From: an uncultured Chloroflexia bacterium
GTDB lineage: Bacteria > Chloroflexota > Anaerolineae > Anaerolineales > E44-bin32
DNA: 64,000 bases
Direction: 5' to 3'
Assembly (NCBI GenBank): GCA_963710255.1
Contig: CAVPZJ010000005.1
Coordinates: 265,439 to 329,438 of the forward strand
Each line of letters opens with the position of its first letter. Position 1 is the stretch's first letter. The translations under genes and the position numbers were made by a program. Of the stretch, positions 4,275 to 54,033 are shown piece by piece. Under the pieces are notes generated by a model. It was not told where the DNA came from, ran no database searches, and saw nothing but the letters and a program-made list of their open reading frames with translations.

Positions 4275-5618
4275 ATGGGAGCAGAGCGGAGCTGGCAGGC
4301 AGCGCTCGGACAACTTCAGATGGAGATGCCGCGAGCAGCCTATGACACCTGGGTCCGCGATGCTGAATACCTCACCTACGAAGATGGCACCTTCGTCATC
4401 GGCGTCAAGAACGCATACGCCCGTGACTGGCTACAGGACCGGCTGCTGGCAACCGTCAAGCGCACGCTGACCGGGATCGTCGGAAGAACGGTCGACGTTC
4501 GTTTCGTTGTCTGGACCGGACCAGCCGCCGAGCAGGTCCAGGACGCAGAGCCCAACCTCCACCGGGTCTCACCTCCATCGAACGGCCATCAACCACAGCT
4601 CAACCGGCGATACACCTTCGACAGCTTCGTTGTCGGCACAAGCAACCGGCTGGCGCATGCTGCGGCGCAAGCCGTCGCCGAAAGCCCGGCCAAAGCCTAC
4701 AATCCGCTCTTCCTGTATGGCGGCGTCGGCCTGGGGAAAACACACCTGCTGCACGCCGTTGGCCACGCCTGCCTGGAAGCCGGCTTGCAGGTTCGCTACG
4801 TCTCCTCGGAGGAGTTCACCAACGACCTGGTCAATGCCATCCTCAGCCATACAACCGCCGCATTCCGCGAACGCTACCGCCGGGTAGATGTCCTGCTCAT
4901 CGATGACATCCAGTTCATCGCCGGCAAAGAATCCACCCAGGAAGAATTTTTCCATACCTTCAACACGCTCCACAGCGGCGACAGGCAGATCGTGCTCACC
5001 TCCGATCGGCCGCCACGGGCGCTCGTCACACTGGAGGAACGCCTGCGCTCGCGCTTCGAGTGGGGGTTGACAGCCGACATCCAGGCTGCGGATTACGAGA
5101 CCCGCCTGGCGATCCTGCGCTCGAAAGCCGAGCGGCAGGGTAGGCAAGTGCCGCACGCCATCCTGGAGGAGGTCGCCCGCCGGGTGCAGAGCAATATCCG
5201 CGAGCTGGAAGGTGCGCTCACTCGCGTCCTGGCTTACGCCGAGCTGCGCGGCGAAGCGCTCTCGACGGAGCTGGTCGAATCAGCCCTGGCGGACATGCTC
5301 GTGCAGACGGGCCGGCCGGACGGCGAGCTGGTCATCGATGCCGTTGCCAGGCGCTATGGCCTGGAACCGGAGCGCTTGCTCAGCCGTGATCGCACGCGCG
5401 AAGTGGCACGTCCGCGCCAGATCGCCATGTACTTGATGCGCCAGGAGACGGATGCCTCGCTGCCCAAGATCGGCGACATGCTGGGTGGGCGCGACCACAC
5501 GACCGTGCTGTATGGGTCCGAGAAGATATCTGAACTCATCGAGACCGACGACGCGCTGCGGCGTGAGGTGATGTCGATCCGCGAACAGCTCTACCGCCGG
5601 CTTGGCGCCACGCCTTAA
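4275..5618 (+). CDS. dnaA: Chromosomal replication initiator DnaA
   Basis: RBS GGGAGGA at 4264-4270. AAA+ Walker A GGVGLGKTHL, Walker B LLIDDIQF, and the C-terminal DNA-binding helix-turn-helix (GGRDHTTVLYG). Confidence 0.95.
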   Translation: MGAERSWQAALGQLQMEMPRAAYDTWVRDAEYLTYEDGTFVIGVKNAYARDWLQDRLLATVKRTLTGIVGRTVDVRFVVWTGPAAEQVQDAEPNLHRVSPPSNGHQPQLNRRYTFDSFVVGTSNRLAHAAAQAVAESPAKAYNPLFLYGGVGLGKTHLLHAVGHACLEAGLQVRYVSSEEFTNDLVNAILSHTTAAFRERYRRVDVLLIDDIQFIAGKESTQEEFFHTFNTLHSGDRQIVLTSDRPPRALVTLEERLRSRFEWGLTADIQAADYETRLAILRSKAERQGRQVPHAILEEVARRVQSNIRELEGALTRVLAYAELRGEALSTELVESALADMLVQTGRPDGELVIDAVARRYGLEPERLLSRDRTREVARPRQIAMYLMRQETDASLPKIGDMLGGRDHTTVLYGSEKISELIETDDALRREVMSIREQLYRRLGATP

Positions 5619-7255: not shown

Positions 7256-9758
7256 CTAAAGCAAGCTGACCGGGTCGACATCCACGGACCAGCCGTCGGG
7301 CAGCTGCTCCGGGATCCAGTTGGTGGGATCGGAACCCCGCAGGATGAGATGCCAGTGGTGAAGGCCGCGGATGCGTTCGAAGTAGCAGGGCGCCGGACCG
7401 ATCAGGTCAAGCGTTTCGCCTGACCCACGCGCCGAGGCCCGCAGGATTTGCGCCATGCGCCCCGCCTCGCGCTCGGCTGCCTGTGCGCTGTTTGCCTTAA
7501 GCAGCAAGCGTACAAGCCGCGTGAAAGGCGGGTACAGGAGCTGCTTGCGGAAGGCGATTTCCTGGTCGTAAAACTCCCGGTAATCGTGCCTGGAGGCTGC
7601 CTTGGACCGCGTAGTGCTGTGGTTGGTAGGTCTGCAGGATGGCCCGTCCACCGAGCAGCCCGCGCCCGGCCCGACCTGCGACCTGGGTCAGGAGCTGGAA
7701 GGTCCGTTCGCCGGCGCGGTAGTCAGGCAGGTTCAGGCCCACGTCTGCGGAAATCACGCCTACCAACGTAACCAGCGGGATATCGAGCCCCTTGGCCAGC
7801 ATCTGGGTGCCGATCAGGATGTCGGCGCGATGGGCGGCGAAGTGGGCCAGGATGACGTCATGCGCGCCCTTCTCGCGCGTCGCGTCATGGTCCCAGCGCA
7901 GCGTCCGGGCTGCCGGGAAACGGCTTTCGACCTCGGCCTGGATGCGCTGTGTTCCCGCTCCGAAGTGCCGCACCCGGCTCCCCCCGCATTCCGGGCAGGT
8001 CACGGGTGCCTGGCGGCGGTATCCGCATTGATGACACACGAGACCGGCTGGGTCACGGTGCATCGTCAGGCTGCGGTCGCAGCGAGGGCAGGTGGCCACC
8101 CACCCGCAATCCCGGCAGAAGATGTGGGTCTCAGCACCGCGGCGGTTCAGGAAGAGGATGGCCTGCTCGCCGGCGGAGAGCACCTCCTGCAGGGCTTCTT
8201 CGAGCGGACGGCTGAAGATGGAGCGGTTGCCTGCTTTGAGCTCGAGGCGCATATCGACAACGCGCACGGGCGGCAGCGCGATCGAGCGCGCCTCGCCCTC
8301 CTCGCTCCCGTAGCGATCCGCAATCCCCAGCCGGGAGGCCTGGCCTGCCAGCCGGGCTCGATGGCCCAGGATCCGGCGCGGGAGTTCCAACCGCTGCAGC
8401 TGACCCCGTTCGGCGCGGAAGGTGGTCGTCACGTCAGGCGTCGCGCTGCCCAGGATGAGCGTCGCCCCGAGCGTGCGGGCATAGGCCTGGGCGGAACTCG
8501 CGGGCATGATAGCGCGGTGACCGCTCCTGTTCCTTGTAGGATTCGTCGTGCGACTCATCGAGCACGATCAAGCCGATGTCGGGAAGCGGGGTGAAAAGCG
8601 CGCTGCGCGGGCCGACGACAATGCGCAAGTCCCCGGCCCGGCAGCGGCGCCAGGTGTCGAAACGCTCACCCGCGGAGAGCTCGGAATGGATCAGCCCGAC
8701 CTGGCCCGGGAAGCGAGCCACGAACCTGCGCACAGTCTGCGGGGTGAGGGCGATTTCGGGCACCAGGATGATCGCGGTCCGCCCGCTTTCCAGCGTCTCG
8801 GCTACGCCCCGCAAGTAGAGTTCGGTCTTGCCGGAACCCGTGATGCCGTGGAGCAGGAAGGCGGCGTAGGTGCCCGCCCGGATAGCCTCGGAAAGCGGCT
8901 GCCAGACCGCCTGCTGGTCCGCTCGTCAGGCTGGGCGGCAGGGCCGGGACGAATTCCAATTCCTCGAGCGGATCGCGCCAGACCTCGGCTTCGCTCAAGG
9001 CGATCAACCCCTCCGCTCTCAAGTTTGCGCAGGTCACCCAGCGAGGCGGCGTGCTCGGCATACAACCAGGAGACCTCGATCGCCTCACCCTCGGCGATCA
9101 GGGTTTCGATGATGCCCTGTCTGCGAGCGTAGGCTTCGCTGCCCGGTTTGCCGATCGAGGCCACGCGCTCGCGGGCAAGGTCGGGTGAGGCTTGCAGGCG
9201 GGCATTGCGGACATGTTTCGGCCGGACGCGGGGCGGGTCGAGCACGGATTCGCGCTCGAGCACACCCTGCCGGAGCAAGGCCTGGACGGCAGCCTTCCAG
9301 GCCTGGCGGGGGAAGGCGCGCGCAATCTGCCGCGAACGGAGCTCGCCCTTTTTCTGCAGCAGGCTGATGACCTTCTGCTGCATGGCGTTCTTGGGCTCGA
9401 CCGGGGTGTCGATCAGCCGGATGACCGAGTCGGCCTGCTGGCTGAGCCCCGGGGGGAGCATCAGCGTCAGGGCGTCGATCAACCCGGCGTGATACGTGTT
9501 TGCAATCCAGGCCGCCAGTTCGAGCTGCGCGGGAGTCAGCACCGGGAACGGGTCGACGAGCGATTCGATGGCCTTGGTCTCGGCGACTGCGGGGGAATCG
9601 GGAAGGCTGACGACAACGCCCTGCGTTCGCTGGCGTCCAAAAGGGACCGTCACAAGGTGACCGAGAGCGATGCGCTCACGCAGATGCGGGGGAAGATGGT
9701 AGTCGAAGGTGCCGCGCACCTGGGGGAGGTTGATGGCAACCTCGGCGAACCTGTGCAT
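7256..9758 (-). CDS. priA: Primosomal protein N' (PriA helicase), frame broken at four sites
   Basis: Five ORF fragments (8802-9926, 8666-9088, 8434-8814, 7497-8558, 7256-7651) tile one PriA. Start is MHRFAEVAINLP. Walker A HGITGSGKTE is recovered after a frame fix, followed by DESHDESYK, the Cys4 zinc motifs (CRDCG..CPRC, CHQCG..CPECG) and the C-terminal domain. Breaks are near 9020-9027, 8919-8920, 8495-8496 and 7600-7601. Confidence 0.85.
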
Positions 9759-9762
9759 GAGC

Positions 9763-11110
<1,348 letters not shown>

Positions 11111-11143
11111 TGATCTGCTCCCTTCCCGGGATTGCCCGGATCT

Positions 11144-12066
11144 CTACGCAGCAGTACGTTCCTGAATCTTCTGATCGGTAGATCACAACCGAGGCGTATC
11201 CGACGACGGAGCTCTTATCGCCTGTGACAGCGGCCGATGTCGTGTGTTCCAAGGCCTTCACCTGGTTCGCGCCCATCGCCCGGCAGGCCCACATCACGGC
11301 CGCTACCGCACCCCGGCCGCAGGCGAACCCGGCCCCCTCCTTTTCCGCGTTTATCACCCCGGCCGGGTCGAAGCGCTCTATGCGCCGGATCATCTCCCGA
11401 TCCAGCACCAGCGCCTCCCGCTCGGGGTAGAAGTGAGAAAGATCTGAGCTGCCGATGATGAGCGTGCCCGGTTCAAGAACCCGGGCCAGGGTTTCGCCGA
11501 CCGCACGCGCCGTCCTCTCGCTCTGGTCGCGCAGCATGATGGCCAGCAGCTGGAACGGCTTGCTCAACGCCCGCTGCAGGAAGGGCAGCTCAATTTCCAG
11601 CGCATGTTCCTGATCCTGCCGGATCCTTTCGACCGTGATCCCGTGCTCTCGTTCCAAACCCTGTTCGAAGCGGGTTTGCAGTTCCTGGTTGATCGTGATC
11701 GACGCCGAGCGGGGTGGCGAACGCGTCGTGCCCGCTGGTTAACACTGCGCTCGCGGCCAGCCCATGCAGCGGGGAGAGGATGACGACCGTCGCCGGCTGC
11801 ATGCCCTGGACGAGCTTGAAAGCCTGGGCGGCGACCGACCCAGAGTAGCGGTGACCGGCGTGGGGAACGATTAATCCCAAGACCCGGCCATCGAGCGGCA
11901 CACCTGTGCCGGCCAGCTCGAGGTAGCGATCGATCGACTCGGCGAGGGTTTTTTGATCGCCGGGGTACCAGCTTCCGGCGATGGGTGAGGGGCGCACGTC
12001 CGTGGGTTCGGGTATTTCTGACACAGCACCGGCATTGTAGCATAAAGCTCCGCCCGCTTGACTCAA
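11144..12066 (-). CDS. Memo-like protein (AmmeMemoRadiSam system protein B family), frame broken; 3' end uncertain
   Basis: SPIAGSWYPG, VPHAGHRYSG, HALEIELPFLQ and GSSDLSHFY motifs. ORFs 11590-12066 and 10932-11657 join near 11705 (ATPLG/SITINQELQ). The ORF then runs into the next gene, so a further indel near 11175 probably hides the stop (candidate TAG at 11144-11146). Confidence 0.65.
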
Positions 12067-12094
12067 CCCGCCCGCCGCCGACCCGGAGAACCCC

Positions 12095-12140
12095 TTGACA
12101 TCCGAACACTTGTTCGAGTAAGATTAGAACACCTGTTCTA
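12095..12140 (+). promoter_or_regulatory. Promoter with two LexA-type (GAAC-N4-GTTC) operators
   Basis: TTGACA (12095-12100), 18-nt spacer, TAAGAT (12119-12124). CGAACACTTGTTCG (12103-12116) lies in the spacer. TAGAACA-CC-TGTTCTA (12125-12140) follows the -10. Confidence 0.6.
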
Positions 12141-12165
12141 CTATGTTCAGGCATGGAGGTGTTCG

Positions 12166-13833: not shown

Positions 13834-14825
13834 TCAGGCAGGGGCGAGGGCTCCCACCAGGCGGTCCAGTGCCGTGTTCAAATCGACCTGGCTCGTCTTA
13901 ACTCCGATGTCGGTTCGCAGCAGATCATGGTAGATGAGGTCCAGGTCGGAGGCGGAGAACGTCCTGGCCTGGGAAGCCAGGCGCTTGACCAGGAACGCTG
14001 GAAGCGAAATAACCTGAGCCGGATCGGAGCCGTGGTCGATTGCCTCCCGCACCAGGATGAGCAGCCGGAACTGGCGGACGATCATGGCGAAGACATAACG
14101 GGGATCGTAATCGTCCAGCAGGCGGGCAAGCTGAATTTGTGCCTGCCGGGCCTGCCGCTGGGCAAGCGACATCGACGAATTCGAAAATGTCACCCTGTCC
14201 CCGGTATGGGGTCAGGAGCTCGATATCCCCGAGCTTGATCGCACGCTCGAAATCGACGTAGTCAAGAAGTTTGCGGAGCTCAAGATCGGCCAGGTAGGCA
14301 TCATCGGCCACCCAGTCGGCCAGGAGTTGCGCCGCATCCGGATCGATTTCACCACCGAGTTCACGGGCGTGATCCAGGATCCAGCGGACGAACTCAGGTC
14401 CACGTGGACTGGCCAAGAAGCGTACGTAACTTTTATCGGGATGTTCTTCCGCCCATTTCCGCAGCCAGGTCCGCCGCCAGGAATCGCGCGACCGGCGCGG
14501 GGGCTGGAGCTGTTCGATGCAGAGCAGGGCAGTGCTGGCCGGGAGCGATAGTGAGCATGGCCTGCATGCCTTCGACGAAGGCACTGCGCTTCGGCAGGTT
14601 TTGTGCCCGATCGACGATGACCAGCCGGCGCTCAGCCAGGAAGGGCATCTGGGAGCAGATCGTCTGCAGCTCATTCAGCTCGAGCTTGTCGCCCTCGAAA
14701 CGCTGGCGGTTCATCGCCACCGTCGAAGCATCCCCCAGCTTCTCGCTCAGCGTGGAGATAAACGCCTCCATGGCGAAGGAATCATCCCCGTACAGCAGGT
14801 AGAGCGAGGGTGCCTCTTCAGTCAT
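13834..14825 (-). CDS. holA: DNA polymerase III delta subunit, frame broken twice
   Basis: ORFs 14433-14825 (SLYLLYGDDSFAMEAF..., PFLAERRLVIV), 13925-14674 and 13834-14193 (YVFAMIVRQFRLLILVRE...) tile one HolA. Breaks are near 14530 and 14190. Confidence 0.8.
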
Positions 14826-15343
14826 CTTATGACCGCGTCAGCACACGGTGCAGGGTCATCCCCGCACCCTCGATCCGCTTCACCGGATAACACGCGCAGG
14901 TTGGCCGGGTCGCCATCTGTCGTGAGCTTCTCCTGTGCAAGCGTGCCCAGTGGCCGGGCGATGATCAATGCCAGGATGACATTGGCGACGGCGAGCGGGA
15001 ATCGCTCGAGCCGGCGGCGCCATCCTTTTCCTTCACTTCCCATGAACGTGAGCAAGGTTGCGCCACTGGCCAGCATGGCCGAGGTGACCAGGTTTGTTCC
15101 GCAGTTCGGGTGGATCGCGAGGGCACGCTCTCCCGCCCGCAGGCGTTCGAGGGCTTTGTTTGTGAACTCGGTCAAGGTGTCTGTATCGACCGCACCGTAA
15201 AGCAGGAAGCCATGAATATCTGACCGGCCGATGAAGGTGCGGTCGGGGTAGCTCCGGCTCAACAGGTGAATTGTGGCATGCTCGAGCCCGTGGTTCCGGC
15301 GAATGCTGGCGAGCGGGTACCTTCCAAGCAGGGATTGCAGCAC
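14822..15343 (-). CDS. Conserved hypothetical protein (RRNHGLEHAT and IHPNCGTN motifs)
   Basis: 173-aa ORF. The C-terminus is probably shifted: the alternative frame reads ...YPVKRIEGAGMTLHRVLTRS with stop at 14827-14829. No family name I can support. Confidence 0.45.
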   Translation of the reverse strand: MLQSLLGRYPLASIRRNHGLEHATIHLLSRSYPDRTFIGRSDIHGFLLYGAVDTDTLTEFTNKALERLRAGERALAIHPNCGTNLVTSAMLASGATLLTFMGSEGKGWRRRLERFPLAVANVILALIIARPLGTLAQEKLTTDGDPANLRVLSGEADRGCGDDPAPCADAVIR

Positions 15344-29380: not shown

Positions 29381-32284
29381 ATGCCTGGAACGCTCCAGAT
29401 CCTGCGATCACGACAGCAACGAGCCAAGCGCCACGCTGGCAGTCACCGCCTGCGCACCCTGGCGCATGTCCTGGCAGCCTTGTTCAGCTTTGTGGCCGGC
29501 ATGGCCGTGCTCGGCCTGGCGCTCACATTTTCCAACCTGGCCACGTCCCTGCCCCCCGTCCAGGACCTGGAGGGGGTTTTCGGTCCCTCCGGCCGGGAGA
29601 CCTTTCGACCGGCTCGATTTTACGACCGGGATGAAGAGCACCTGCTGTTCGAGTACTTGAACCCGGCTGCCGCCGATAGGCGCTGGATCTATCTCGATCC
29701 GACCGGGCCGATAGACCTGCCGCCCTATGCGCTGCAAGCCATGCTCATCGCCCAGGACGAAGGTTTCTGGAGCCACCCGGGCTATCTTCCAACCCAGGCC
29801 CTGTCGGCCATATCGGGTTACCTGCTGGGCACGCCGATCGATTGGAGCAGTCTGACGATCACTGAACAGCTGGCGCAAGCACAGCTTGCCCCGCTGGACG
29901 TCGAAGGCGGGAACCCCGGTGCGGTACGAGTTCAAGTGCTCCTGCTGGCGTCCGAAATCACACGCAGGTACCCACGCCAACAGATCCTCGAGTGGTACCT
30001 GAACAGCGCCGACTTTGGCCAGCGCGCGTACGGCATCGATGCGGCGGCTCTGACCTACTTCGGCAAGCACGCCAGCGACCTTTCGCTTGCTGAGAGCGCC
30101 CTGCTTGCGTCCATCCCGGGCAGCCCGCAGGCCAACCCGGTCGATGCACCAGAGGTCGCCACCCAAAACAAGCTGGGTGTCCTGCGAACCATGCTGCTGG
30201 CAGGTTTAATCAGCGAAAAAGAAGCCGACCAGGCGGGTGCGGCGCAGATAACGCTCGCTACCCAGGCACAGCTGCTGGGAAACCTGGCGGGGTTCGAAAC
30301 CTATCTCACGCAGCGCATCGAACGCAGCTTCGGCCGTCCCCTGCTCGGGCGGAGCGGGCTGCGCATCCGCACCTCGCTCGACTGGGATCTGCACCAGCAA
30401 GCCGCATGCACGCTTGAATCGCAGATCAACCGGCTTAATGGTGGTGAACCTGGAGCGGTCCTGCCCCCGCAAGACGGTTCGAACTGCCTGGCTGCCGGCC
30501 TGCTGACACCGGTCCGACCGAGGGATGCGGGCGTGGATCACGCTATCGAAGCCGGCGCCGTTGTCATCACCAAGCCGGATACGGGCGAACTGCTCAGCTT
30601 CTTGGGCCAGGTAAGTTCGCCGGCTCCGGTCGCCGGACTAACTTCGCCCTTCACGGCTCTTACCGCTTTCGCCCAGGGCTACAGCCCGGCGAGCATGCTG
30701 CTTGATGTATCCCCAATCGAGGCTGGGTCTAGCAGCCCGGGACCGGCATATCAGGATCATGGTCCGGTGCGCCTGCGGCTTGCGCTGGCCAACCAATACC
30801 AGGCTGCGCTCGAGCGTTTGGTCGACCAGGTTGGTGTGGAAAGCGTTCAGCGGACGCTTGCATCCTTCGGTTTCAAGGACGAACCCAAAGAGCTTCAGAC
30901 AGAAGATAACCGGCAGATGGATACATACCTGCTTGATCTAGCGAACGCATACGGCGTGTTCGCGAACGAAGGCACGCTGCGCGGCATATCTGTGCGAGAC
31001 GTGTCACCCGGAGGACACCTGGAACCGGTTGTGGTCCTGATGATCGAAGATGGCGCCCGGCGCTTGATTTACCAGGCGGATCCTGCTTCGCAGGCACTGG
31101 TGAGCGCGCAGCTCGCCTACCTCATGGTCGATATATTGAGCGACGAAGCGGCACGCTGGCCGAGCGTCGGAAAAGGCAGTCCGCTCGAGGTCGGTAGGAC
31201 CGCAGGCGTGGTGGCCTCGACCTCGCCTGGAGCCGGCCAGGCGTGGACCCTGGGCTTTACACCCGAGATCGTGGTTGGCGTGATGCTCCAGGCGCAGGAC
31301 GAGCTTGGAACGGAGGCCCTGACCGCACTGAATGGACCGGCGCCAGTTTGGCATGCGCTCATCCAGTACGCGACGCGCGATCTGCCACCCTCAGCCTGGA
31401 ATGCCCCGCCCGGGGTAAGCACCCTGGAAGTGTGCGACCCGTCGGGCTTGCTCCCCACGCCCTACTGCCCGTCCGTCGTCCGCGAGGTGTTTTTGAATGG
31501 TACCGAGCCGACGACCGCCGATAACCTGTTCCAGCCATTCCTGGTCAATCGTGAAACGGGCAAGCTGGCCACCCTCGACACGGCGCCCGATCTGGTCGAG
31601 GAGCAGGTCTTCATGGTCGTGCCCCCCGGCGCGGAAGCATGGGCCGAGCAGTCGGGCATCGCCCGCCCGCCGGAGGAGTACGACACGCTGCGGGCAGGCG
31701 AGATCGACCCGGCTGTGAACATCCGCACCCCCGGCCCCTTCACGTTTGTACGAGGCGTGGTTCGCATCACAGGCAGTGCAGAGGCAGAGTCGATGGAACG
31801 GTTCCGGGTCCAGTACGGCCGGGGTCTGAACCCGACCAGCTGGGTGCAGGTCGGCGAGGACGAAACGCGTCCCGTAGGCGGGGGTCAGCTGGCGACCTGG
31901 GACACCTCGGGCTTGAGCGGGCTGTACACGCTCCAACTGGTCGTCGTGGAGGATAGCGGGCGGCTGCGGACGGCCGCCGTGCAGGTCACCGTGGATAATG
32001 AAGCGCCCACGGCCGAAATCACGCTGCCAGGCCCCGGCCAGGTCATCGTCGGCACGGTCGACGACAGCCTCGTGCTCCAGGCGGACGTCGCCGATGACGT
32101 ACGGGGTGGCCCGGGTGGTGTTCTACGTCGACGGCCAGGTGGCTGGGACCTTGACGGATGCACCTTATTCGCTCGTGTGGAGTCTGTCCCGGAGCGGCGA
32201 GCACACGGTGGAAGTCGAGGCGTTTGACCTGGCAGGGAATTCAGGTCGCTGCGCCCGAATCTCGTTTCAGTCATCCGTCCCTGA
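29381..32284 (+). CDS. Class A PBP-like protein (GT51 glycosyltransferase, transpeptidase-like domain, C-terminal Ig-like domains), 3' part frame-broken
   Basis: GT51 motifs QDEGFWSHPG, LTITEQLA, ILEWYLN. The C-terminal part continues in ORF 31998-32372 (GVARVVFYVDGQVAGTL...AFDLAGNS). The probable true stop is TGA 32282-32284, just before a hairpin. Confidence 0.8.
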
Positions 32285-35937: not shown

Positions 35938-36068
35938 GCAGGGAGCGTGAGCAACTGGGCCAGGGTTATAATTAATTGCGGAGGCTCGGTTTGGTCTGAG
36001 ACAAGCCTCGTGACGAATGACCCTTGTTCCCAGCCATCGTCAGGGTTATGGTACCTCCAGGAGAACCT

Positions 36069-37790
36069 ATGTCCGCTGAGCGAAAAGTCGTCGATCACAC
36101 CGACCTTGAACCAGTCCTGGAAAAGTATGCCGGCCAGGGCCGGTCAGCACTCCTGCCGCTGCTGTTTGAGGTCCAGAACCAACAAGGATACTTGTCCGAA
36201 GAAGCTGTGACCGCCATCGGGAAGACCCTGCGGGTGCCGCTGGCGGATATCTTCGGCGTGATCGAGTTCTACACCTTGTTCTACACTGAACCGGTGGGGA
36301 AGCGTGTCGTCCGCGTTTGCACCAGCCCGATGTGTGCCATGAAGGGCAGCCAGGAAAACCTGATGTCGGCTGCCTCGCACCTGGGGGCCGAACTAGGACG
36401 GACGCGCGGGGACGGGGAGGTCCTGGTCGAGTCTGCACCCTGCCTGGGCCTGTGTGACCATGCCCCGGCTGTCCTGGTCGATGCTATTCCGGCTGGCCCG
36501 GTGAGCCCGGCGGATGTGGACCAGTGGAGCGTGAACCCGGTCGAGGCAGGCCCGGGGATCGTGGCTGGGGAACCGCGCTGGCTGACCGCGCGCTGTGGCG
36601 CGATCGCCCCCACGGACATCGAAGCCTATCGCTCGATGGATGGGTTTGCGGCCCTCCACAAAGCCCTGAAGGAACTCAAACCAGGTTCCGTGATCGACTT
36701 GATAAAAGCCTCCGGGCTGGTCGGTCGGGGTGGAGCCGCCTTCCCCACCGGCGTTAAATGGGAGTACACGGCGGGTGCCCCTGGCGACGAAAAATACATC
36801 GTGTGCAACGCGGACGAATCCGAGCCGGGCACGTTCAAAGACCGGGTCCTGATGGAGGGGGATCCGTATGCCATCCTGGAGGGCATGGCTATCGCCGGCT
36901 ATGCGATCGGGGCGAAGACGGGCTACCTCTACGTGCGCGGAGAGTACCCGCGGGCCCAGCGGATTCTCCGGGAAGCGATCGATCAGGCGCGTCTGGCAGG
37001 CTGCCTGGGGGAAGGCATCCTGGGGTCGGACTTCGCCTTCGATGTCATCCTTCGCTCTGGCGCAGGAGCCTATATCTGTGGGGAAGAAACGGCACTCTTC
37101 GAATCGATTGAAGGCAAGCGCGGCTTCCCGCGCCTGAAACCACCTTTCCCAACGACACACGGCTTGTTCGGCAAGCCGACTGCGATCAACAATGTGGAAA
37201 CGCTCTGTGCAGCAGCGTGGATCGTCCAGCATGGGGCGGAAGCCTACCGCAGCGTCGGTACAGACGGATCGCCCGGGTCGAAGCTGTTCTGTCTTTCTGG
37301 CGATGTTCAGAACCCGGGCGTGTACGAAGTGCCCTTCGGTACGCGCCTCGCTGATCTCATCGCCATGGCCGGCGGATCGACAGGTGAACTGCAGGCCATC
37401 CTGCTAGGAGGCGCAGCGGGCGCATTCGCCGGGCCGGGTGACCTCGACCTGCGTCTGAGTTTTGAGGACATGCGTGCCGCAAACCTCCCACTCGGATCGG
37501 GCGTTGTGACGCTTATCAACAGTGAAAGAGACATGAGGCAGTTCCTGCAAAGCCTGGCGCATTTCTTTGCCCACGAATCATGTGGGAAGTGTTTCCCCTG
37601 CCAGCTGGGCACGCAGCGCCAGGTGGAGATCATCGACCGCATGGCGGATGGTGGAATGCAGAAGGGTGACCTGGCCGCGCTCCAGGACATTGGCTTTGCC
37701 ATGACGAACGCCTCGCTTTGTGGGTTGGGGATGACCGCAGCCACCGCCATCCTCTCGGCGCTCGAGCGCTGGCCGGAGTTGGGGAGCTGA
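36069..37790 (+). CDS. NuoE-NuoF fusion (NAD/FMN/Fe-S diaphorase subunit of formate dehydrogenase or hydrogenase type)
   Basis: ATG at 36069. NuoE-like CxxxxC...CLGLC, NuoF GRGGAAFPTG, FMN/NAD motifs, ESCGKCFPC 4Fe-4S motif. Confidence 0.8.
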   Translation: MSAERKVVDHTDLEPVLEKYAGQGRSALLPLLFEVQNQQGYLSEEAVTAIGKTLRVPLADIFGVIEFYTLFYTEPVGKRVVRVCTSPMCAMKGSQENLMSAASHLGAELGRTRGDGEVLVESAPCLGLCDHAPAVLVDAIPAGPVSPADVDQWSVNPVEAGPGIVAGEPRWLTARCGAIAPTDIEAYRSMDGFAALHKALKELKPGSVIDLIKASGLVGRGGAAFPTGVKWEYTAGAPGDEKYIVCNADESEPGTFKDRVLMEGDPYAILEGMAIAGYAIGAKTGYLYVRGEYPRAQRILREAIDQARLAGCLGEGILGSDFAFDVILRSGAGAYICGEETALFESIEGKRGFPRLKPPFPTTHGLFGKPTAINNVETLCAAAWIVQHGAEAYRSVGTDGSPGSKLFCLSGDVQNPGVYEVPFGTRLADLIAMAGGSTGELQAILLGGAAGAFAGPGDLDLRLSFEDMRAANLPLGSGVVTLINSERDMRQFLQSLAHFFAHESCGKCFPCQLGTQRQVEIIDRMADGGMQKGDLAALQDIGFAMTNASLCGLGMTAATAILSALERWPELGS

Positions 37791-37791
37791 G

Positions 37792-38633
37792 TTGACCGCT
37801 TCACAGGATGTTAAAGCGCGCGGGGCCGTACCTGCTGAATGGATTGAGCTGGGCGATGGTGCCCGGCACGCGGCAGGCGAACTTATCGAGGAGGCCCTTA
37901 TCACGCTCTACCTCAATGGCCTCGAGCTGGCGACCCTGATGGGCACGCCGCAGCAGCTGGAAGCCCTGGCTTTGGGATTTATGACGACCGAGGGCTTGAT
38001 CTGCCGGCATGGCTGATGTCGATCACACTCACGTCAGTGCCCAGTCGTGTTGTGTTGATGTCTGGACTGTGCGACGGGTTGAGATACCCGAGAAGCGCAT
38101 CATCACCTCTGGCTGTGGGGGAGGCATTACCTTCGACGATCCCCAATCCGGGCTCGCGATCCTCGAGGATGATTTACACATTGAGGCCGGGCAATTGCTC
38201 GATCAATTCACCCAGCTGCAAAGCCCGGACAGTCTCTATGCCCGGTCACGCGGGGTTCACAGCGCCGGCCTATCCGATGGGACCAGCTTGCTGGCGGTGG
38301 CTGAGGATGTCGGCCGGCACAATACAATCGACAAAGTTGTCGGCCTGTGCCTGCTGAACGGGATCGAAACCCGCGGCCGGATCTTGCTCACGACCGGCCG
38401 GGTTTCTTCCGAGATGATGAAGAAAGCTGCCCGCATGGGATGCCCGATCATCGCCTCGAGAAACTCACCAACCTCACTTTCGGTGGCGATGGCACAGGCT
38501 TTGAACATCACCCTGGTTGGCTACGTGCGCCGGGCTAGCATGCGCGTTTACGCACATCCCGAGAGGCTGCGTATTGAGCCTGCTGACCTGATCGAGGATC
38601 TCTCGTCAAGTTTGAGCGTTTATCCAGGAGGGT

Positions 38634-38650
<17 letters not shown>
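37792..38650 (+). CDS. fdhD: Formate dehydrogenase accessory sulfurtransferase FdhD, one frame break
   Basis: ORFs 37792-38016 and 38009-38650 join near 38005. SGCGGG active-site loop and [11 protein letters not shown] motif. Confidence 0.8.
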
Positions 38651-39371
<721 letters not shown>

Positions 39372-39372
39372 C

Positions 39373-41449
39373 ATGCTGCAGGAAGAACGAATCGTACCGA
39401 CCACCTGCCCATATTGCGGCGTCGGCTGCCAGATGGATCTGCATCTGCGTGGCGAGCAAATTGTTCGCGTCGACGGCCGTTTCGACAACCACGTGAATTT
39501 TGGCAACCTGTGCGTCAAGGGCCGCTTCGGGTATGACTTCGTCTACGCGCCAGACCGCCTGGATGTGCCGTTGTCGCGTGGCTCACGTTCGGCGGAGTTT
39601 GAGCCGACAAGCTGGGAGTCCGCGCTGAAGCAGGTCGCCGGGCGACTGATGGACGTGCGCGCCAAGCATGGTCCCGACAGCCTCGCCTTCCTGACCTCGG
39701 CCAAGTGCACCAATGAAGAGAATTACCTGATGCAGAAGCTGGCGCGGGCGGTCGTAGGGACGAACAACATCGACCACTGCGCCCGGCTTTGACACTCCAG
39801 CAGCGTGGCCGGTCTGGCCACAACGCTCGGCTCAGGCGCAATGACAAATTCCATCGACGATATCACCTCCGCCAGGGTGCTCTTCGTCATCGGCAGCAAC
39901 ACGACCGAATCACACCCCGTGCTCAGCCTGCAGATGAAGAAAGCCGTTCGCGAATATGGTGCACGCCTTATCCTGGCTGACCCAAGGCGGATCGAGCTCG
40001 CTGATTTCGCGTACCTGCACCTTCGGCAGCGCCCAGGTACGGACGTGGCCCTGGTGAATGCCATCGGGCATGTGATCCTCGAGGAGAACCTGCATAACCC
40101 GGAATTTATCGAAGCGCGGACAGAGAATTTCGAAGCATACCGGGATTCGTTGAAATCGTGGACACCAGAACGCGCAGCCGAGATCACCGGCGTTCCGGCG
40201 ACCGACATCATCGAAGCCGCCCGGCTATACGCCACCTCCCCGGCCTCGGCCATTTTCTGGGCGATGGGCATCACCCAGCACACGACCGGAACCGACAACG
40301 TCAAATCCCTGGCCAACCTGGCCTTGCTCTGCGGGCAGGTGGGCCGCCCGGGTACCGGGTTGAACCCTCTCCGTGGTCAGAACAACGTGCAGGGCGCATG
40401 CGACATGGGCGGCCTGGTGAATGTTTATCCCGGGTATCAATCGGTGGCAGATCCGAACGTCAGGGCGAAGTTCGCAAAGGGGTGGGGCATCGCGGAGGAG
40501 TCGCTGAGCCTGAGAGCCCGGCTTGACCGTGACCGAGATCATGGATGGGGTGTTGGCGGGGAAGGTGAAGGCAATCTACGTGATGGGAGAGAACCCGATG
40601 CTCTCCGATCCAGACCAAACGCATGTCCGGGAAGCGCTGCAGGCGGTTGAATTCCTCGTCGTCCAGGATATGTTTGTTAACGAGACGGCTGAACTCGCCG
40701 ATGTCGTCTTGCCCGCGGTCAGCTTTGCCGAAAAAAGCGGGACCTTCACCAACACCGAGCGCAGGGTGCACCTGGTACGCAAAGCAATCGAGCCCAGGAC
40801 TGCCGCGCTCACAGACTGGGACATCCTCACCAGGCTGGCGAATGAGATGGGCGCCGGGTGGTCATATACAACCCCATCCGAGATCTTTGATGAGATGGCC
40901 GCCCTGACCCCGCAGTATGCCGGGATTTCGCATGGGCGCCTGGAGGGCGGCGGAATCCAATGGCCGTGCCCGACTTCGGATCACCCCGGAACACCCATTC
41001 TGCATGTGGGGAAGTTCACGCGGGGATTGGGTCTCTTTAGCGTGGTCGACTTCCAGGAAGCGGCCGAGTTGCCGAGTGACGAGTTCCCACTCATCCTTTC
41101 CACGGGCCGCGTCCTCTTCCACTGGCATGGGGGTACGATGTCGCGCCGATCCCCAGTGCTCGACAGCCTGGCGCCGGTCGCGGAGGTGGAGATTCACCCC
41201 GCTGATGCGGAGAAGTATGCCATTCAGGACGGTGGGATGGTGCGGGTCGTATCACCGCGAGGCGCCGTGGAAGCGCGCGCCCTTGTTACCCAGCGCTCCC
41301 CCCAGGGAACGGTCTTCATGACCTTTCACTTCGCGGAGGCGGCTGCAAACCTGCTTACGCCAAAGAACATCGATCCCGTAGCGAAGATCCCGGAGTATAA
41401 GGTCTCTGCGGTGCGGATAGAGCCCGTACACGAGCTGGCCCAGAGTTGA
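39373..41449 (+). CDS. fdhA: Formate dehydrogenase catalytic (molybdopterin) subunit, selenocysteine at UGA 39790-39792; one frame break near 40510-40520
   Basis: RBS GAGGAG, ATG at 39373, CPYCGVGC cluster. ORFs 39280-39792 and 39805-40650 are in the same frame across TGA: [36 protein letters not shown] 40523-41449 continues after a +1 shift (...[13 protein letters not shown]). Confidence 0.8.
39790..39827 (+). promoter_or_regulatory. UGA-Sec recoding site with SECIS-like hairpin
   Basis: TGA at 39790-39792. Stem GTGGCC (39805-39810) / GGCCAC (39816-39821) with apical loop GGUCU. Lower stem AGC/GCT with a 3-nt bulge. The upper stem starts 12 nt after UGA. Confidence 0.65.
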
Positions 41450-48478: not shown

Positions 48479-48550
48479 GCCGACGTAGCTCAACGGCAGA
48501 GCAACCGCCTTGTAAGCGGTAGGTTATGGGTTCGATTCCCATCGTCGGCT
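48479..48550 (+). tRNA. tRNA-Thr (anticodon UGU)
   Basis: Manual cloverleaf: acceptor GCCGACG/CGTCGGC, anticodon stem ACCGC/GCGGT, loop CTTGTAA, T-arm ATGGG-TTCGATT-CCCAT. 72 nt, no encoded CCA. Confidence 0.85.
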
Positions 48551-48615
48551 TGGTTTCCCAGCAAGCCCACGAGGCCCACGACCAGGGAACTCTGGGAAGT
48601 GTACAGGGCGACCAT

Positions 48616-48702
48616 GGGCGGTTACCCAAGTGGCCAAAGGGGGCTGACTGTAAATCAGCTGGCATACGCCTTCGGAGGTTCGAAATCCTTCACCGCCCAC
48701 CA
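48616..48702 (+). tRNA. tRNA-Tyr (anticodon GUA), long variable arm, encoded CCA; T-loop has 8 nt
   Basis: Acceptor GGGCGGT/ACCGCCC, anticodon stem GCTGA/TCAGC, loop CTGTAAA. T-arm GGAGG-TTCGAAAT-CCTTC has one extra A. Confidence 0.8.
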
Positions 48703-48741
48703 GGTTTTTCAACGCTGCTCGGATCGGCAAGCGTGGTGCCT

Positions 48742-48814
48742 GCCCTCATAGCTCAGACGGTAGAGCACGTTCTTGGTAAGAACGGGGTCAGGGGTTCAAT
48801 TCCCCTTGAGGGCT
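48742..48814 (+). tRNA. tRNA-Thr (anticodon GGU)
   Basis: Acceptor GCCCTCA/TGAGGGC, anticodon stem CGTTC/GAACG, loop TTGGTAA, T-arm AGGGG-TTCAATT-CCCCT. Confidence 0.85.
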
Positions 48815-48862
48815 CTGAGGACCATACCAACCGGAAATTGACTGCATGAGGAGATAGGAACT

Positions 48863-50065
<1,203 letters not shown>

Positions 50066-50109
50066 GAGTGGTTTGAGCTTGCCGCCAGGCGGAGAGCTCG
50101 CAACCGATT

Positions 50110-50274
50110 ATGGCCAAGAAAGATGTACGCCCGGTAATTACCCTGGAATGCACGGAATGCCAGGAGCGAAACTACACATCTGAGAAAAACCGTCGGAATG
50201 ATCCTGGCCGGCTCGAGTTGAACAAGTACTGTTCGCGCTGCCAGAAGCACACGATGCATCGCGAGACAAAGTAG
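50110..50274 (+). CDS. rpmG: 50S ribosomal protein L33
   Basis: Not in the ORF track (54 aa). Own translation: [54 protein letters not shown]. Confidence 0.85.
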
Positions 50275-50295
50275 GGGCTAACAAGCCCTTTTCGC

Positions 50296-50372
50296 AGGCG
50301 AGTAGCTCAATTTGGCAGAGCACCGGTCTCCAAAACCGGGGGTTGCGGGTTCAAGTCCTGCCTCGCCTGCCA
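50296..50372 (+). tRNA. tRNA-Trp (anticodon CCA), encoded CCA end
   Basis: Acceptor AGGCGAG/CTCGCCT, anticodon stem CCGGT/ACCGG, loop CTCCAAA, T-arm GCGGG-TTCAAGT-CCTGC. Confidence 0.85.
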
Positions 50373-50429
50373 GTGAAACCCTGCGACGCCTGGCGGGAAC
50401 GGGCGTCGCTTAGTCTGAGGAGTAGTGGA

Positions 50430-50651
50430 GTGGCAAAATCCAAAGCCGCTTCGAAGCGGAAGTCCAACCCGATTACGCGCTACCTGCGCGAGTCGAGCGC
50501 CGAGCTGCGGAAGGTCACCTGGCCGACACGCCAGGAAGCCATTCGCCTGACGATCATTGTGCTCATCGTGGTTACGTTCATGAGCGCGCTGCTCGGCGTT
50601 CTGGACTTCGTGTTCTCGCGGGTCATCGCCTTCATCGTAAGCCTGGGTTAG
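50430..50651 (+). CDS. secE: Preprotein translocase subunit SecE
   Basis: GTG at 50430. ...YLRESSAELRKVTWPTRQEA followed by a single TM helix. The ORF-track start overlaps tRNA-Trp. Confidence 0.8.
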   Translation: MAKSKAASKRKSNPITRYLRESSAELRKVTWPTRQEAIRLTIIVLIVVTFMSALLGVLDFVFSRVIAFIVSLG

Positions 50652-50676
50652 AAGCTGGACTGCAAGGGAGTCACGA

Positions 50677-51606
50677 GTGAGCGAGTTTGAAGAAGAACGG
50701 GCTGAGGCGATCTCAGACGAGGAAATGACCGAAACGGCCGCGGCGGAAGCCGAAGCTTTGGATTCGGAAGCCGAGGCAGCCGAGCCGGAGGAGAGCCTGC
50801 CCGCGGCGTTGGCTGAGCTGGCGTCCGAGGATGCCGAGATGGAGGCCGAGGCCCCCGATGTAGAAGAAAGCGCAGCCGCAGACGAGCTCGAATCGCCGCA
50901 GGAACCGGCTACGCTGGAAGCGCCGGAAGCGATGGAGGAGCAGGAGGAAGACGAAGCGCCCGCCCCCGAAGCCCTGGAAGTGCCAACGATCCCAGAACCG
51001 GCCATGAGTGCCAAGGCGCAGGTTGAAGCCGAGGCCGAGGAAGAGCTGGAAGGGGAAACCCAACCGGCTGGCGAACCGGATGACGGCCGGCACTGGTACG
51101 TCGTGCACTGCTACTCGGGCTATGAAAACAAGGTGCGGCACAACCTTGAGCAGCGCATTGAGACCATGAACATGAAGGCCAAGATATTCGACGTTGTCGT
51201 CCCAACCGAAGAGGAGATCGAGGTCAAGGATGGCAAGCGCCGCACGGTTGAACGGCGCGTTTTCCCTGGCTACATCCTGGTCCAGATGCTGATGGACGAA
51301 GATTCGTGGTACGTCGTGCGCAACACGCCAGGCGTGACCGGGTTCGTCGGAATGGGCAACGACCCAACGCCGCTGCGGCCAGAGGAAGTCTCTTCCATCG
51401 TCAAGCGTATGGAGGCGGAAGCGCCCCGCATCAAGGTCACCTACAAGACTGGACAGAAGGTCCGCATCATCGATGGGCCCTTCAATGATTTCATCGGGAC
51501 CGTCTCCGATATCGATATGGAACGGGCGAAAGTGCGCGTGATGGTCTCTTTCTTCGGCCGGGAAACACCGGTCGAACTCGATTTCCTGCAGGTAGAGAAG
51601 GCATAA
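50677..51606 (+). CDS. nusG: Transcription termination/antitermination factor NusG with ~125-aa acidic N-terminal extension
   Basis: RBS AAGGGAG, GTG at 50677. The NGN domain starts at [17 protein letters not shown] domain at [16 protein letters not shown]. Confidence 0.9.
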
Positions 51607-51679
51607 GCTTCGGCTCGCCTGGGCGAGCCCAATGTGGGAGGGCTTGAAAGCCCGTTCGCACCACTGGAGGAGTAAGACT

Positions 51680-52105
51680 GTGGCGAAAAAACTAAAAGCA
51701 ATCCTGAAATTGCAGATTGAAGCCGGCAAGGCCAACCCTGCACCACCGATTGGACCGGCGCTTGCGCCGCACGGCATCAACTTGATGGCGTTTTGCAAGG
51801 AGTACAACGCTCGCACCTCGAGCAAGATGGGCGAGATCATCCCGGCCGAGATCACCATCTACACGGATGGCTCGTTCACCTTCACACTCAAGACCCCGCC
51901 TGCAGCGGTATTGCTGCGCAAGGCGGCCGGTGTGGAGAAGGGCTCGGCTGAACCAAACCGCGATAAGGTTGGCAAAGTAACCCGAAATCAGGTTCGCGAA
52001 ATTGCTGAAACCAAGATGAAGGACCTAAACGCCACGGACATCGAAGGCGCTATGCGCCAGATCGAAGGCACCGCGCACAATATGGGCATCGTCATCGAAG
52101 GTTGA
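51680..52105 (+). CDS. rplK: 50S ribosomal protein L11
   Basis: GTG 51680 after [32 protein letters not shown]. Confidence 0.95.
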
Positions 52106-52156
52106 TCGTGGGAGGGTCGCCAGCGAGCGGCCCGTTGGGACCACAGGGAGATGAGA

Positions 52157-52870
52157 ATGGCAAAGCAGGGCAAGAATTATCGCAACGCGCTCGAACAGGT
52201 CGATCGTCAGAAACTGTACGAACCCCTGGAAGCGCTCGAACTGATCAAGAGCATCGCTTTCACAAAGTTTGACAGCACCGTCGAAGTGCACATGCGGCTT
52301 GGCGTCGATACCCGCCACGCGGACCAACAGATCCGGGACACGGTGATGCTGCCCCACGGATTGGGCAAGACTGTGCGTGTCGTCGTCTTCGCCGAAGGCG
52401 ATGCGGCCAGGGCGGCAAGCGAAGCTGGCGCAGATTTTATCGCCGACGACGAATTGATCACACGCATTCAGGGCGGATGGATGGATTTTGATGCAACCGT
52501 CGCCACGCCCAACATGATGGGCAAGGTCGGGCGGCTCGGCCGCATCCTGGGCCCGCGCGGCCTGATGCCCAGCCCGAAGGCGGGCACCGTTGTGCCCGAG
52601 GATGACCTGGGCCGTGTCATCGACGAATTGAAATCCGGGCGGGTTGAATTCCGTACCGACCGGACCGCCAATTTGCATGTGCCGATCGGCAAGATTTCGT
52701 TCGAAGCCCAACAGCTGTATGAGAACATGGCGGCCCTGATGGATGCCGTGCGGCGCACGCGGCCGGCTTCCGCCAAAGGCGCGTACATCCGGCGCGTCGT
52801 CATCAGCAGCACGATGGGGCCTGGTATTCGCGTTGAGCCAAACGCCGCCCTTGCGCTGGGCGGGGGATGA
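52157..52870 (+). CDS. rplA: 50S ribosomal protein L1
   Basis: ATG at 52157, 6 nt after AGGGAG. MAKQGKNYRNA..., GRILGPRGLMPSPKAGTV. Confidence 0.95.
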   Translation: MAKQGKNYRNALEQVDRQKLYEPLEALELIKSIAFTKFDSTVEVHMRLGVDTRHADQQIRDTVMLPHGLGKTVRVVVFAEGDAARAASEAGADFIADDELITRIQGGWMDFDATVATPNMMGKVGRLGRILGPRGLMPSPKAGTVVPEDDLGRVIDELKSGRVEFRTDRTANLHVPIGKISFEAQQLYENMAALMDAVRRTRPASAKGAYIRRVVISSTMGPGIRVEPNAALALGGG

Positions 52871-52872
52871 CC

Positions 52873-53082
52873 TTCACAGCCTGGTAGATGCGCGGTACAA
52901 TGGCTGCCGCGTTAGACAATTGCATCATCGTTTCGCCTGAGACAGCAGGTGTCTGGCAGCAGACTTAATTTCCTGCCGAGGTGAAGACTCGATTGAATCC
53001 GGACTACCCCTGAGAGTCTTTGCTTGAGCCATCTGTGCGAAGCGAAGACTCGAATTGATTCTGGGGAAGGAGGATAGGAAAC
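52873..53082 (+). promoter_or_regulatory. rplJ promoter and structured leader
   Basis: TTCACA (52873-52878), 17-nt spacer, TACAAT (52896-52901). The ~180-nt leader contains two copies of GAAGACTCGA(A)TTGA(A/T)TC (52983-52999, 53044-53061). Confidence 0.5.
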
Positions 53083-53619
53083 TTGGCAATCTCTAAGCAG
53101 CGGAAAGAAGACCTCGTTTCGCAATACCGCGAGATCCTGGGACGAAACTCGAGCATCCTGCTGACCGAGTACAGCGGGTTGACCGTCAAGGAGACGGAAG
53201 CCTTACGCGAGAAAATTCGCGAGATGGGTGGAGAGTTCTTCGTCGTCAAGAATTCGCTGGCGAAACGGGCATTCGAAGAGTCAGGCTGGACACATCCAGA
53301 TGATGCATTCGAAGGTCCAACAGCGATGGGAGCAGCTTCGGAAGATATTCCGGGGTTGGCAAAAATCCTGGTCGATCTCTCGAAAGAGAAGGAAACCTTC
53401 AAGATAAAGGCCGGGATTATCGATGGTGAGATATTCAACGCAATGCAGCTTCATCATCTCGCCGAACTCCCACCGATGCCCGTACTCCAATCGCAATTCA
53501 TGGGCGTCTTGAACATGCCTGGGTCACAGCTGGCAGGCGTCCTGGCGGGATCGTTGCGGCAAGTCCTGAACGTGCTCCAAGCCCGGATCGATGCACAGCC
53601 GCAAGGCTCCGCAGCCTGA
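53083..53619 (+). CDS. rplJ: 50S ribosomal protein L10
   Basis: TTG start after GAAGGAGG. Typical L10 N-terminus (KQRKEDLVSQYREIL). Confidence 0.9.
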   Translation: MAISKQRKEDLVSQYREILGRNSSILLTEYSGLTVKETEALREKIREMGGEFFVVKNSLAKRAFEESGWTHPDDAFEGPTAMGAASEDIPGLAKILVDLSKEKETFKIKAGIIDGEIFNAMQLHHLAELPPMPVLQSQFMGVLNMPGSQLAGVLAGSLRQVLNVLQARIDAQPQGSAA

Positions 53620-53652
53620 CATTCATACTAAAAAACCAAGGAGAGCTTTATC

Positions 53653-54033
53653 ATGGCAGATATCAAGAAAATCAAGGATGAACTGAATAAGCTGACCATC
53701 CTGGAAGTTTCAGAACTGGTCAAAGAGCTCGAGGAAGAATGGGGTGTCTCCGCAGCTGCCCCGATGGCGATGGCCGTCGCGGCCGGCCCCGGTGGCGCGG
53801 CGGTTGAGGCCGAGGAAGAGAAGAGCGAGTACGACGTCATCTTGAAGGATGTTGGTCCGAAGAAGATCGACGTGATCAAGGCCATCCGCCAGATCACCCA
53901 GCTCGGGCTGGCTGATTCGAAGGAACTGGCCGAGACAGCTGGCGCCAAGGTGCTCGAGCAGGCTGGCAAGGAATCAGCCCAGGACGCCAAGGCCAAGCTG
54001 GAAGCGGCCGGCGCTACGGTTGAACTCGCCTGA
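53653..54033 (+). CDS. rplL: 50S ribosomal protein L7/L12
   Basis: LTILEVSELVKELEEEWGV, Ala-rich hinge, C-terminal ...KAKLEAAGATVEL. Confidence 0.95.
   Translation: MADIKKIKDELNKLTILEVSELVKELEEEWGVSAAAPMAMAVAAGPGGAAVEAEEEKSEYDVILKDVGPKKIDVIKAIRQITQLGLADSKELAETAGAKVLEQAGKESAQDAKAKLEAAGATVELA

Follow-up and report, generated by a model that had tools for sequence, protein, structure and literature searches.

The catalytic subunit of formate dehydrogenase (FDH), FdhA, is the most common and most widespread selenoprotein in bacteria (PMC1794560). FDHs with an active-site selenocysteine (Sec) have been annotated in single-cell genomes of Anaerolineales, several of which also contain SelB, although selenocysteine insertion sequence (SECIS) elements were not analyzed in that paper (Fullerton and Moyer 2016, PMC4959059). 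Bacterial SECIS (bSECIS) elements are generally described as stems of 6–8 bp whose loop has a conserved G at a distance of about 20 nt from the UGA (PMC4605307). Here we examined a 64-kb stretch of DNA (hereafter the window; 64,000 nt, contig CAVPZJ010000005.1 of assembly GCA_963710255.1) from an uncultured Chloroflexia bacterium, whose closest relatives belong to the same order, Anaerolineales. Its fdhA gene contains an in-frame UGA followed by a hairpin. We consider it highly probable that this UGA is a genuine Sec codon read with the downstream bSECIS hairpin, that the gene is part of a probably NAD(H)-linked FDH operon, and that a frameshift within the gene is an assembly error. The features concerned are the following.

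39373–41449, + strand: fdhA, catalytic subunit of FDH binding molybdenum or tungsten (Mo/W) through bis-pyranopterin guanine dinucleotide (bisPGD); identified by TIGR01591, Pfam and alignment with E. coli FdhH
39790–39792, + strand: in-frame UGA, the Sec codon, residue 140, Mo/W ligand; aligned with Sec140 of E. coli FdhH, TGA in relatives
39805–39821, + strand: bSECIS minihelix with a 6-bp stem (39805–39810 paired with 39816–39821) and apical loop GGUCU (39811–39815), from the minimum free energy (MFE) fold
40513–40519, + strand: position of the extra nucleotide in fdhA (AGAGCCC), where the 39373 frame passes into the +1 frame; located by tblastn and the spacing in relatives

Conservation of the UGA codon in fdhA

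The open reading frames (ORFs) 39280–39792 and 39805–40650 share one frame and are separated only by the TGA at 39790–39792. Reading from the ATG at 39373, the frame gives ...NIDHCARL, meets this TGA and then continues in frame. An earlier note on this DNA, made from the sequence alone, had taken the two ORFs for a single gene split by a Sec codon, and the arrangement it described was confirmed. It had also likened the surrounding peptide to the active site of E. coli FdhH. This likeness holds well: the fdhF product reads CCARV-U-HGPSVAGL, and the TGA of the window falls on Sec140 in an alignment with 43% identity from end to end.

For protein comparisons, FdhA was reconstructed by placing Sec or cysteine (Cys) at codon 140 and removing the one inserted base, which gave 691 aa. 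The product matches the NCBIfam model TIGR01591 (Fdh-alpha) with 861.6 bits, against a cutoff of 666.25, over profile positions 1–672 of 672, and the Pfam domains Molybdop_Fe4S4, Molybdopterin and Molydop_binding are spread over the three pieces of the assembled gene. Its best relatives among solved structures are FdhF of the hydrogen-dependent CO2 reductase (HDCR; 7qv7_S), 7vw6, 6tg9_A and E. coli FdhH (1aa6_A). Equivalents of His141 and Arg333 of the E. coli enzyme are conserved, and the motif residues C12-x2-C15-x3-C19...C47, the U140-H141 pair and R334 of the window protein all align with their FdhH counterparts.

We then turned to the same codon in other organisms. A scan of species-representative genomes yielded 80 loci with 81 homologous genes, in 54 of which the aligned codon is TGA; the other 27 have TGC or TGT. 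The closest relatives are metagenome-assembled genomes (MAGs) of Anaerolineales, the top one (L001) with 77% amino acid identity, and every close Anaerolineales relative (MAGs L001–L017) has TGA at this position. Nine metagenome contigs found by a scan with a 35-mer of the SECIS region, with 66–73% nucleotide identity to the window, are also of the TGA type.

TGA is a regular stop codon in the window, where it ends 8 of the 13 genes checked, fdhA itself included. An alternative genetic code in which UGA is a sense codon genome-wide was rejected on this ground, and any recoding of the UGA in fdhA must therefore be local.

The hairpin downstream of the UGA

Twelve nucleotides after the TGA begins the hairpin GUGGCC-GGUCU-GGCCAC, which covers the codons V-A-G-L-A-T and forms the core of the MFE fold, in agreement with what the earlier note had drawn. 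Loop positions G22 and G23 lie 19–20 nt downstream of the UGA, and the hairpin fits the general description of bSECIS elements (PMC4605307). The combination of a TGA, 12 nt and this hairpin occurs once in the window, with 0 occurrences expected by chance. The 13-mer GGCCGGUCUGGCC is found once per locus, always at the SECIS site.

Comparative analysis was based on a Sec-type set of 55 sequences (the window and the 54 TGA-containing genome relatives) and a Cys-type set of 27. Within the hairpin, synonymous sites of the Sec-type genes are frozen: Ala is GCC in 55/55, Gly is GGU in 54/55 and Leu is CUG in 55/55. Third positions flanking the element are free to vary in the same genes, and the synonymous positions of the element itself vary in Cys-type genes. 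The six stem pairs are formed in 99.7% of the alignment cells of the Sec-type set. Pair 18–30, which joins two third-codon positions, is G-C in 44 sequences, A-U in 5 and C-G in 5, and is never broken; when its partner was slid by 1–3 columns as a control, pairing fell to 18–66%. RNAalifold returned exactly the same 6 pairs as the consensus.

The element also separates the two types of genes. The full stem is present in 54/55 Sec-type versus 1/27 Cys-type sequences, and the GGUCU loop in 54/55 versus 3/27. Covariation and synonymous-site constraint are thus found together in Sec-type genes and are absent from the Cys-type homologs, as expected of a structure maintained by selection. A covariance model was built from the 54 relatives, leaving out the window, and searched with filters off. 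With this model, the element of the window received 66.3 bits (E = 4.5e-12), and the runner-up in the 64 kb reached 12.9 bits. Held-out Sec-type contigs scored 61–67 bits. The score was no higher than 47 bits for Cys-type genes and was 18 bits for E. coli fdhF. These sequences and alignments directly show the UGA and its homology to Sec140, as well as the hairpin, whose conservation and covariation are confined to Sec-type genes. What the earlier note had proposed, a Sec-encoding UGA with a SECIS element in the catalytic subunit of an FDH, is supported by homology, TGA conservation, covariation and the covariance model.

The remaining pairings around the hairpin did not gain such support. A lower AGC/GCU stem with a bulge, which the note had placed beneath the hairpin, can be drawn, but only 53% of its cells are paired across the relatives. 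The alternative lower stem of the MFE fold was also rejected, with 65% paired.

Single sequences depart from the general pattern in each set. One Sec-type homolog (L078:1357–1404) is the sole member with a GGGCU loop and thus varies naturally at position U24. A Cys-type (TGC) FdhA from a Dehalococcoidaceae MAG (L035:10400–10447) keeps a perfect 6-bp stem and the GGUCU loop (GTGACCGGTCTGGTCACC, 46.9 bits), and its element looks like the SECIS "fossil" of a recent switch from Sec to Cys.

The operon, its frameshifts and alternative explanations

The fdhA gene is the last of an operon on the + strand, at 36.0–41.4 kb of the window, that comprises a NuoE-NuoF fusion, fdhD, an Fe-S subunit and fdhA. 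The features upstream of fdhA are listed below.

36024–37790, + strand: NuoE-NuoF fusion, a diaphorase module similar to FdsG/FdsB (Pfam 2Fe-2S_thioredx, Complex1_51K, SLBB and NADH_4Fe-4S; NCBIfam nuoF_fam and nuoE)
37792–38650, + strand: fdhD, sulfurtransferase/maturation factor, in two frames (Pfam FdhD-NarQ, profile positions 68–236 only, in the second ORF)
38634–39371, + strand: Fe-S subunit of 245 aa, a NuoG/HoxU-like N-terminal module with 2Fe-2S and 4Fe-4S sites (Pfam Fer2_4, Fer4_7 and Fer4_Nqo3)
39361–39366, + strand: ribosome-binding site GAGGAG, 6 nt 5' of the fdhA ATG, read from the sequence, with GGAG equivalents in relatives

The partners expected of an FdsGBA-like complex, that is, NuoE-, NuoF- and NuoG-like modules and FdhD, are all present according to Pfam and NCBIfam. 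Judging from this domain content, the operon probably encodes a cytoplasmic, NAD(H)-linked FDH. The gene order is shared with L001, L003, L004, L006, L009 and L010. The NuoE-NuoF fusion has 64–70% amino acid identity to intact ORFs of L001, L003, L004 and L009; its start is uncertain, as alignments with homologs begin at about 36060–36093. The Fe-S subunit, which also matches HoxU and the N-terminal part of hydrogenase A6 in NCBIfam, ends with TAA at 39369–39371. The boundary at which this stop is followed by the ATG of fdhA is conserved in L001, L002, L003, L006 and L008. Because the junction of stop, ribosome-binding site and ATG is conserved in relatives, the split between the two genes is genuine, and a third frameshift at this place was rejected.

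Several features of the surroundings were also noted. Four Anaerolineales/Chloroflexota relatives (L015:13865, L016:13368, L017:7021 and L019:13589) contain a second, divergent FDH-like paralogue 1.3–1.9 kb past the stop of the Sec-type fdhA, corresponding to 2.4–2.9 kb between the matched motifs. In the window, a tRNA-Thr/Tyr/Thr cluster lies about 7 kb downstream of fdhA, at the same distance as in L001, L003, L004 and L009, and is part of a larger cluster with tuf, tRNA-Trp and nusG at 48.4–54 kb (48479–54033) that is probably followed by ribosomal-protein genes. As dnaA is located at 4.2–5.6 kb (4227–5618), the window probably lies close to the origin of replication.

Some observations weigh against the interpretation of the UGA as a functional Sec codon. 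First, no tRNA-Sec, selA, selB or selD was detected in the 64-kb window, either by ARAGORN, by Pfam searches of about 40 of the larger ORFs or by tblastn with the SelA, SelB and SelD proteins of E. coli, a result that concerns these 64 kb alone. Second, the folding energy of the hairpin is not exceptional (z = −0.93 for 45 nt, with 37 of 200 shuffled sequences folding as well). Third, the match to the Rfam family SECIS_3 (RF01989) reaches 24.6 bits, far below the gathering threshold of 63. Fourth, fdhA as assembled is frameshifted, and so is fdhD, which leaves a dead operon as an unlikely alternative.

With regard to the Sec machinery, the only SelB-like match in the window is EF-Tu, a paralogue of SelB, and the tRNAs of the window are limited to Thr, Tyr, Thr and Trp. 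No tRNA-Sec adjoins fdhA in 60 related loci either. A homolog of selD with 44% identity to E. coli SelD was observed about 3.5 kb downstream of the Sec-type fdhA in a Deltaproteobacteria MAG (L036:15593–16621), and it is the only sel gene in any of the flanks fetched.

Folding energy was dropped as evidence for the hairpin, being uninformative in a GC-rich coding context; for a 101-nt stretch the z value was −0.29. As for Rfam, only tRNAs were found in the window at the gathering threshold, and SECIS_3 appeared when the threshold was relaxed. It is the only Rfam family that matches the region (39787–39845, model positions 1–59, local E = 0.0011), with the UGA and the hairpin in register.

The frameshift in fdhA was overlooked in the earlier note, which had treated the gene as uninterrupted over 39373–41449. 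The 39373 frame turns to nonsense and stops at 40650. The continuation, PGLTVTEIM..., starts at about 40517 in the +1 frame, ends with the stop at 41449 and supplies the C-terminal 310 aa. This +1 frame contains stops at 40505–07 and 40511–13, just before homology to fdhA resumes at 40517, and tblastn with the intact ORFs of six relatives placed the switch of frame at 40509–40524. Since the spacing is the same in the relatives, the one extra base of the window falls within AGAGCCC. The reading frame of fdhA, the Sec codon aside, is interrupted once, by the insertion at about 40513–40519.

Similar interruptions were found elsewhere. The fdhD gene is split into 37792–38016 and 38009–38650 by a 1-nt insertion near 38005–38009 (CATGGCT; tblastn frame switch at about 38005), and its relatives have one intact ORF of 273–306 aa. 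A transglycosylase/penicillin-binding protein (PBP) gene at 29381–32227 changes frame near its C-terminus at 32098–32100, where comparison with L001, L003 and L004 shows a 1-nt insertion (GAC-G-TAC). On the − strand, priA (7256–9962) consists of four overlapping ORFs in different frames, implying three frameshifts, and the order of its domains across these ORFs is canonical (3'BD, DEAD/ResIII, Zn-ribbon with Helicase_C, PriA_C). Also on the − strand, holA, encoding the delta subunit of DNA polymerase III (13834–14837), has its N-terminal domain (14433–14837) and C-terminal domain (13834–14211) in separate ORFs. A Memo-like ORF (10932–11738, − strand) matches profile positions 104–269 only; its N-terminal third may be encoded in a different frame, perhaps by ORF 11564–12154, which would be a further frameshift. 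Altogether, the 64 kb contain at least eight frameshifts, or about one per 8 kb. With so many, several of them in normally indispensable genes, an indel-prone assembly is indicated rather than decay specific to the operon. Most likely, the insertion at about 40516 in fdhA is a single-nucleotide error of the assembly without biological meaning, as far as comparison of sequences can tell.

The explanation that survives best after this one is a decaying pseudogene operon, in which the TGA and the SECIS element were inherited from a functional ancestor and fdhA (about 40516) and fdhD (about 38005) are truly inactivated. Two frameshifts inside a 5.4-kb operon would fit it, and metagenome scans found no same-species sequence with which the frameshifts could be checked; a scan with the pattern flanking the frameshift gave no match. 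On the other hand, like frameshifts break the normally indispensable genes priA (three times) and holA as well as the PBP gene, and with at least eight in 64 kb two in the operon are no excess. In addition, the frames are otherwise clean, with 72–79% identity to relatives on either side of the shift, and the SECIS element is perfectly preserved. We therefore regard decay of the operon as unlikely.

A base-calling error or a recent nonsense mutation could also have turned a Cys codon (TGC/TGT) into TGA, in which case the protein would be of the Cys type or truncated and the hairpin coincidental. The assembly is demonstrably error-prone, Cys-type homologs do exist (27/81), and the stability of the hairpin is unremarkable. 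However, the assembly errors that can be detected are indels, not substitutions, and the nearest relatives all have TGA. Moreover, the window has the complete Sec-type signature (GUGGCC GGUCU GGCCAC, 66 bits), the stem of which occurs in 1/27 Cys-type genes. In the alignment of both types of homologs, 54 with TGA versus 27 with TGC/TGT, it is the Sec-type genes that have the SECIS signature. An altered Cys codon is thus very improbable.

Another possibility is dual recoding, with Sec inserted at UGA-140 and a programmed +1 ribosomal frameshift at CUG-AGA-G-CCC near 40516 producing full-length FdhA. The change of frame is exactly +1, and the Arg codon AGA is of a rare type; slippage into the +1 frame can be promoted by hungry codons. 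Nevertheless, a frameshift at this place is absent from all of the more than 60 relatives, the site is without a known +1 stimulatory motif, and unrelated genes across the window contain similar single-base frameshifts, so that we give this explanation hardly any credence. That the frameshifts in fdhA, fdhD, priA and holA are all real is scarcely believable; it would call either for two recoding events on one fdhA mRNA or for a lineage that tolerates or corrects pervasive frameshifts.

A genuine Sec codon in an operon affected by assembly errors therefore remains the favored explanation, and it has consequences for annotation. The two ORFs, three fragments in this assembly, are best joined into a single gene for a selenoprotein, and 39790–39792 should be entered as a translation exception. 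It is plausible that automatic pipelines would split the gene, as the earlier note had predicted. A rate of about one frameshift per 8 kb should also temper calls of pseudogenes or split genes from this assembly. The organism itself is best recorded as a likely user of selenium that has a formate-oxidizing or CO2-reducing, NAD-linked FDH. Furthermore, the nucleotide signature GCC GGU CUG GCC, together with the paired couple of third positions, separates Sec-type from Cys-type genes in this FDH clade.

Comparison with E. coli fdhF and FdsGBA-type enzymes

The fdhF gene of E. coli resembles fdhA of the window in having its UGA at the homologous codon 140, and both enzymes have the U-H pair and the catalytic Arg. 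The resemblance extends to the RNA. Downstream of the UGA, fdhF reads UGA CAC GGC CCA UCG GUU GCA GGU CUG CAC C, and GGUCUG occupies nt 22–27 counted from the U of the UGA, on the same G-L codons within V-A-G-L. G22, G23, U24 and C25 of the window are at offsets identical to those of fdhF. The earlier note was accordingly right in matching the apical GGUCU to the fdhF SECIS element and its overlap with the codons.

The two hairpins differ in other respects. The stem is GUGGCC/GGCCAC in the window and GGU-UGCA/UGCACC in fdhF, and the predicted loop is GGUCU (5 nt) in the window versus GGUC closed by an A-U pair in fdhF. U17 is bulged in fdhF, whereas in the window and in the consensus it is paired with A31 (U-A in 24 and U-G in 30 sequences). 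Because U17 is paired and not bulged, the element does not reproduce the architecture found in E. coli, and we predict that it is SECIS-like in function.

If decoding proceeds as in E. coli fdhF, the mRNA 3' of the UGA would fold into the 6-bp, GGUCU-capped hairpin (39805–39821) as the ribosome nears, which would bring the G/U of the loop to a distance of about 20 nt from the UGA. The complex of SelB, GTP and Sec-tRNASec would then bind the loop through the C-terminal winged-helix domains of SelB, and SelB, competing with release factor 2 (RF2), would bring Sec to the A site. In the finished FdhA, Sec140 would ligate Mo/W. We infer SelB binding and Sec insertion, as well as selABCD elsewhere in the genome and the dependence on NAD.

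The enzymes differ in their partners: E. coli FdhH serves the formate-hydrogenlyase complex, and FdhA of the window is encoded with NuoE/F-like partners. In this respect the operon resembles those of FdsGBA-type FDHs, with which it shares the NuoE/NuoF-like and NuoG-like Fe-S modules and FdhD. According to the literature, Fds enzymes use Cys at the active site. The catalytic domain of FdhA is close (E = 1e-184 to 1e-209) to those of the FdsGBA-type FDHs from Rhodobacter capsulatus (6tg9) and Methylobacterium (FoDH1, 7vw6/7e5z) and to FdhF of the Thermoanaerobacter kivui HDCR (7qv7), and the T. kivui chain has Cys at the position aligned with the UGA of the window. The gene structure differs as well. 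In Fds enzymes, the Fe-S module and the catalytic domain form a single polypeptide of about 950 aa, whereas in the window the Fe-S module has a separate gene of 245 aa, a split that is conserved in relatives. Conversely, NuoE and NuoF are fused in the window, unlike in Fds enzymes. Taken as a whole, the arrangement of a UGA and a downstream hairpin in fdhA is a textbook one with nothing biologically new, and Sec-type FDHs have already been described in Anaerolineales (PMC4959059).

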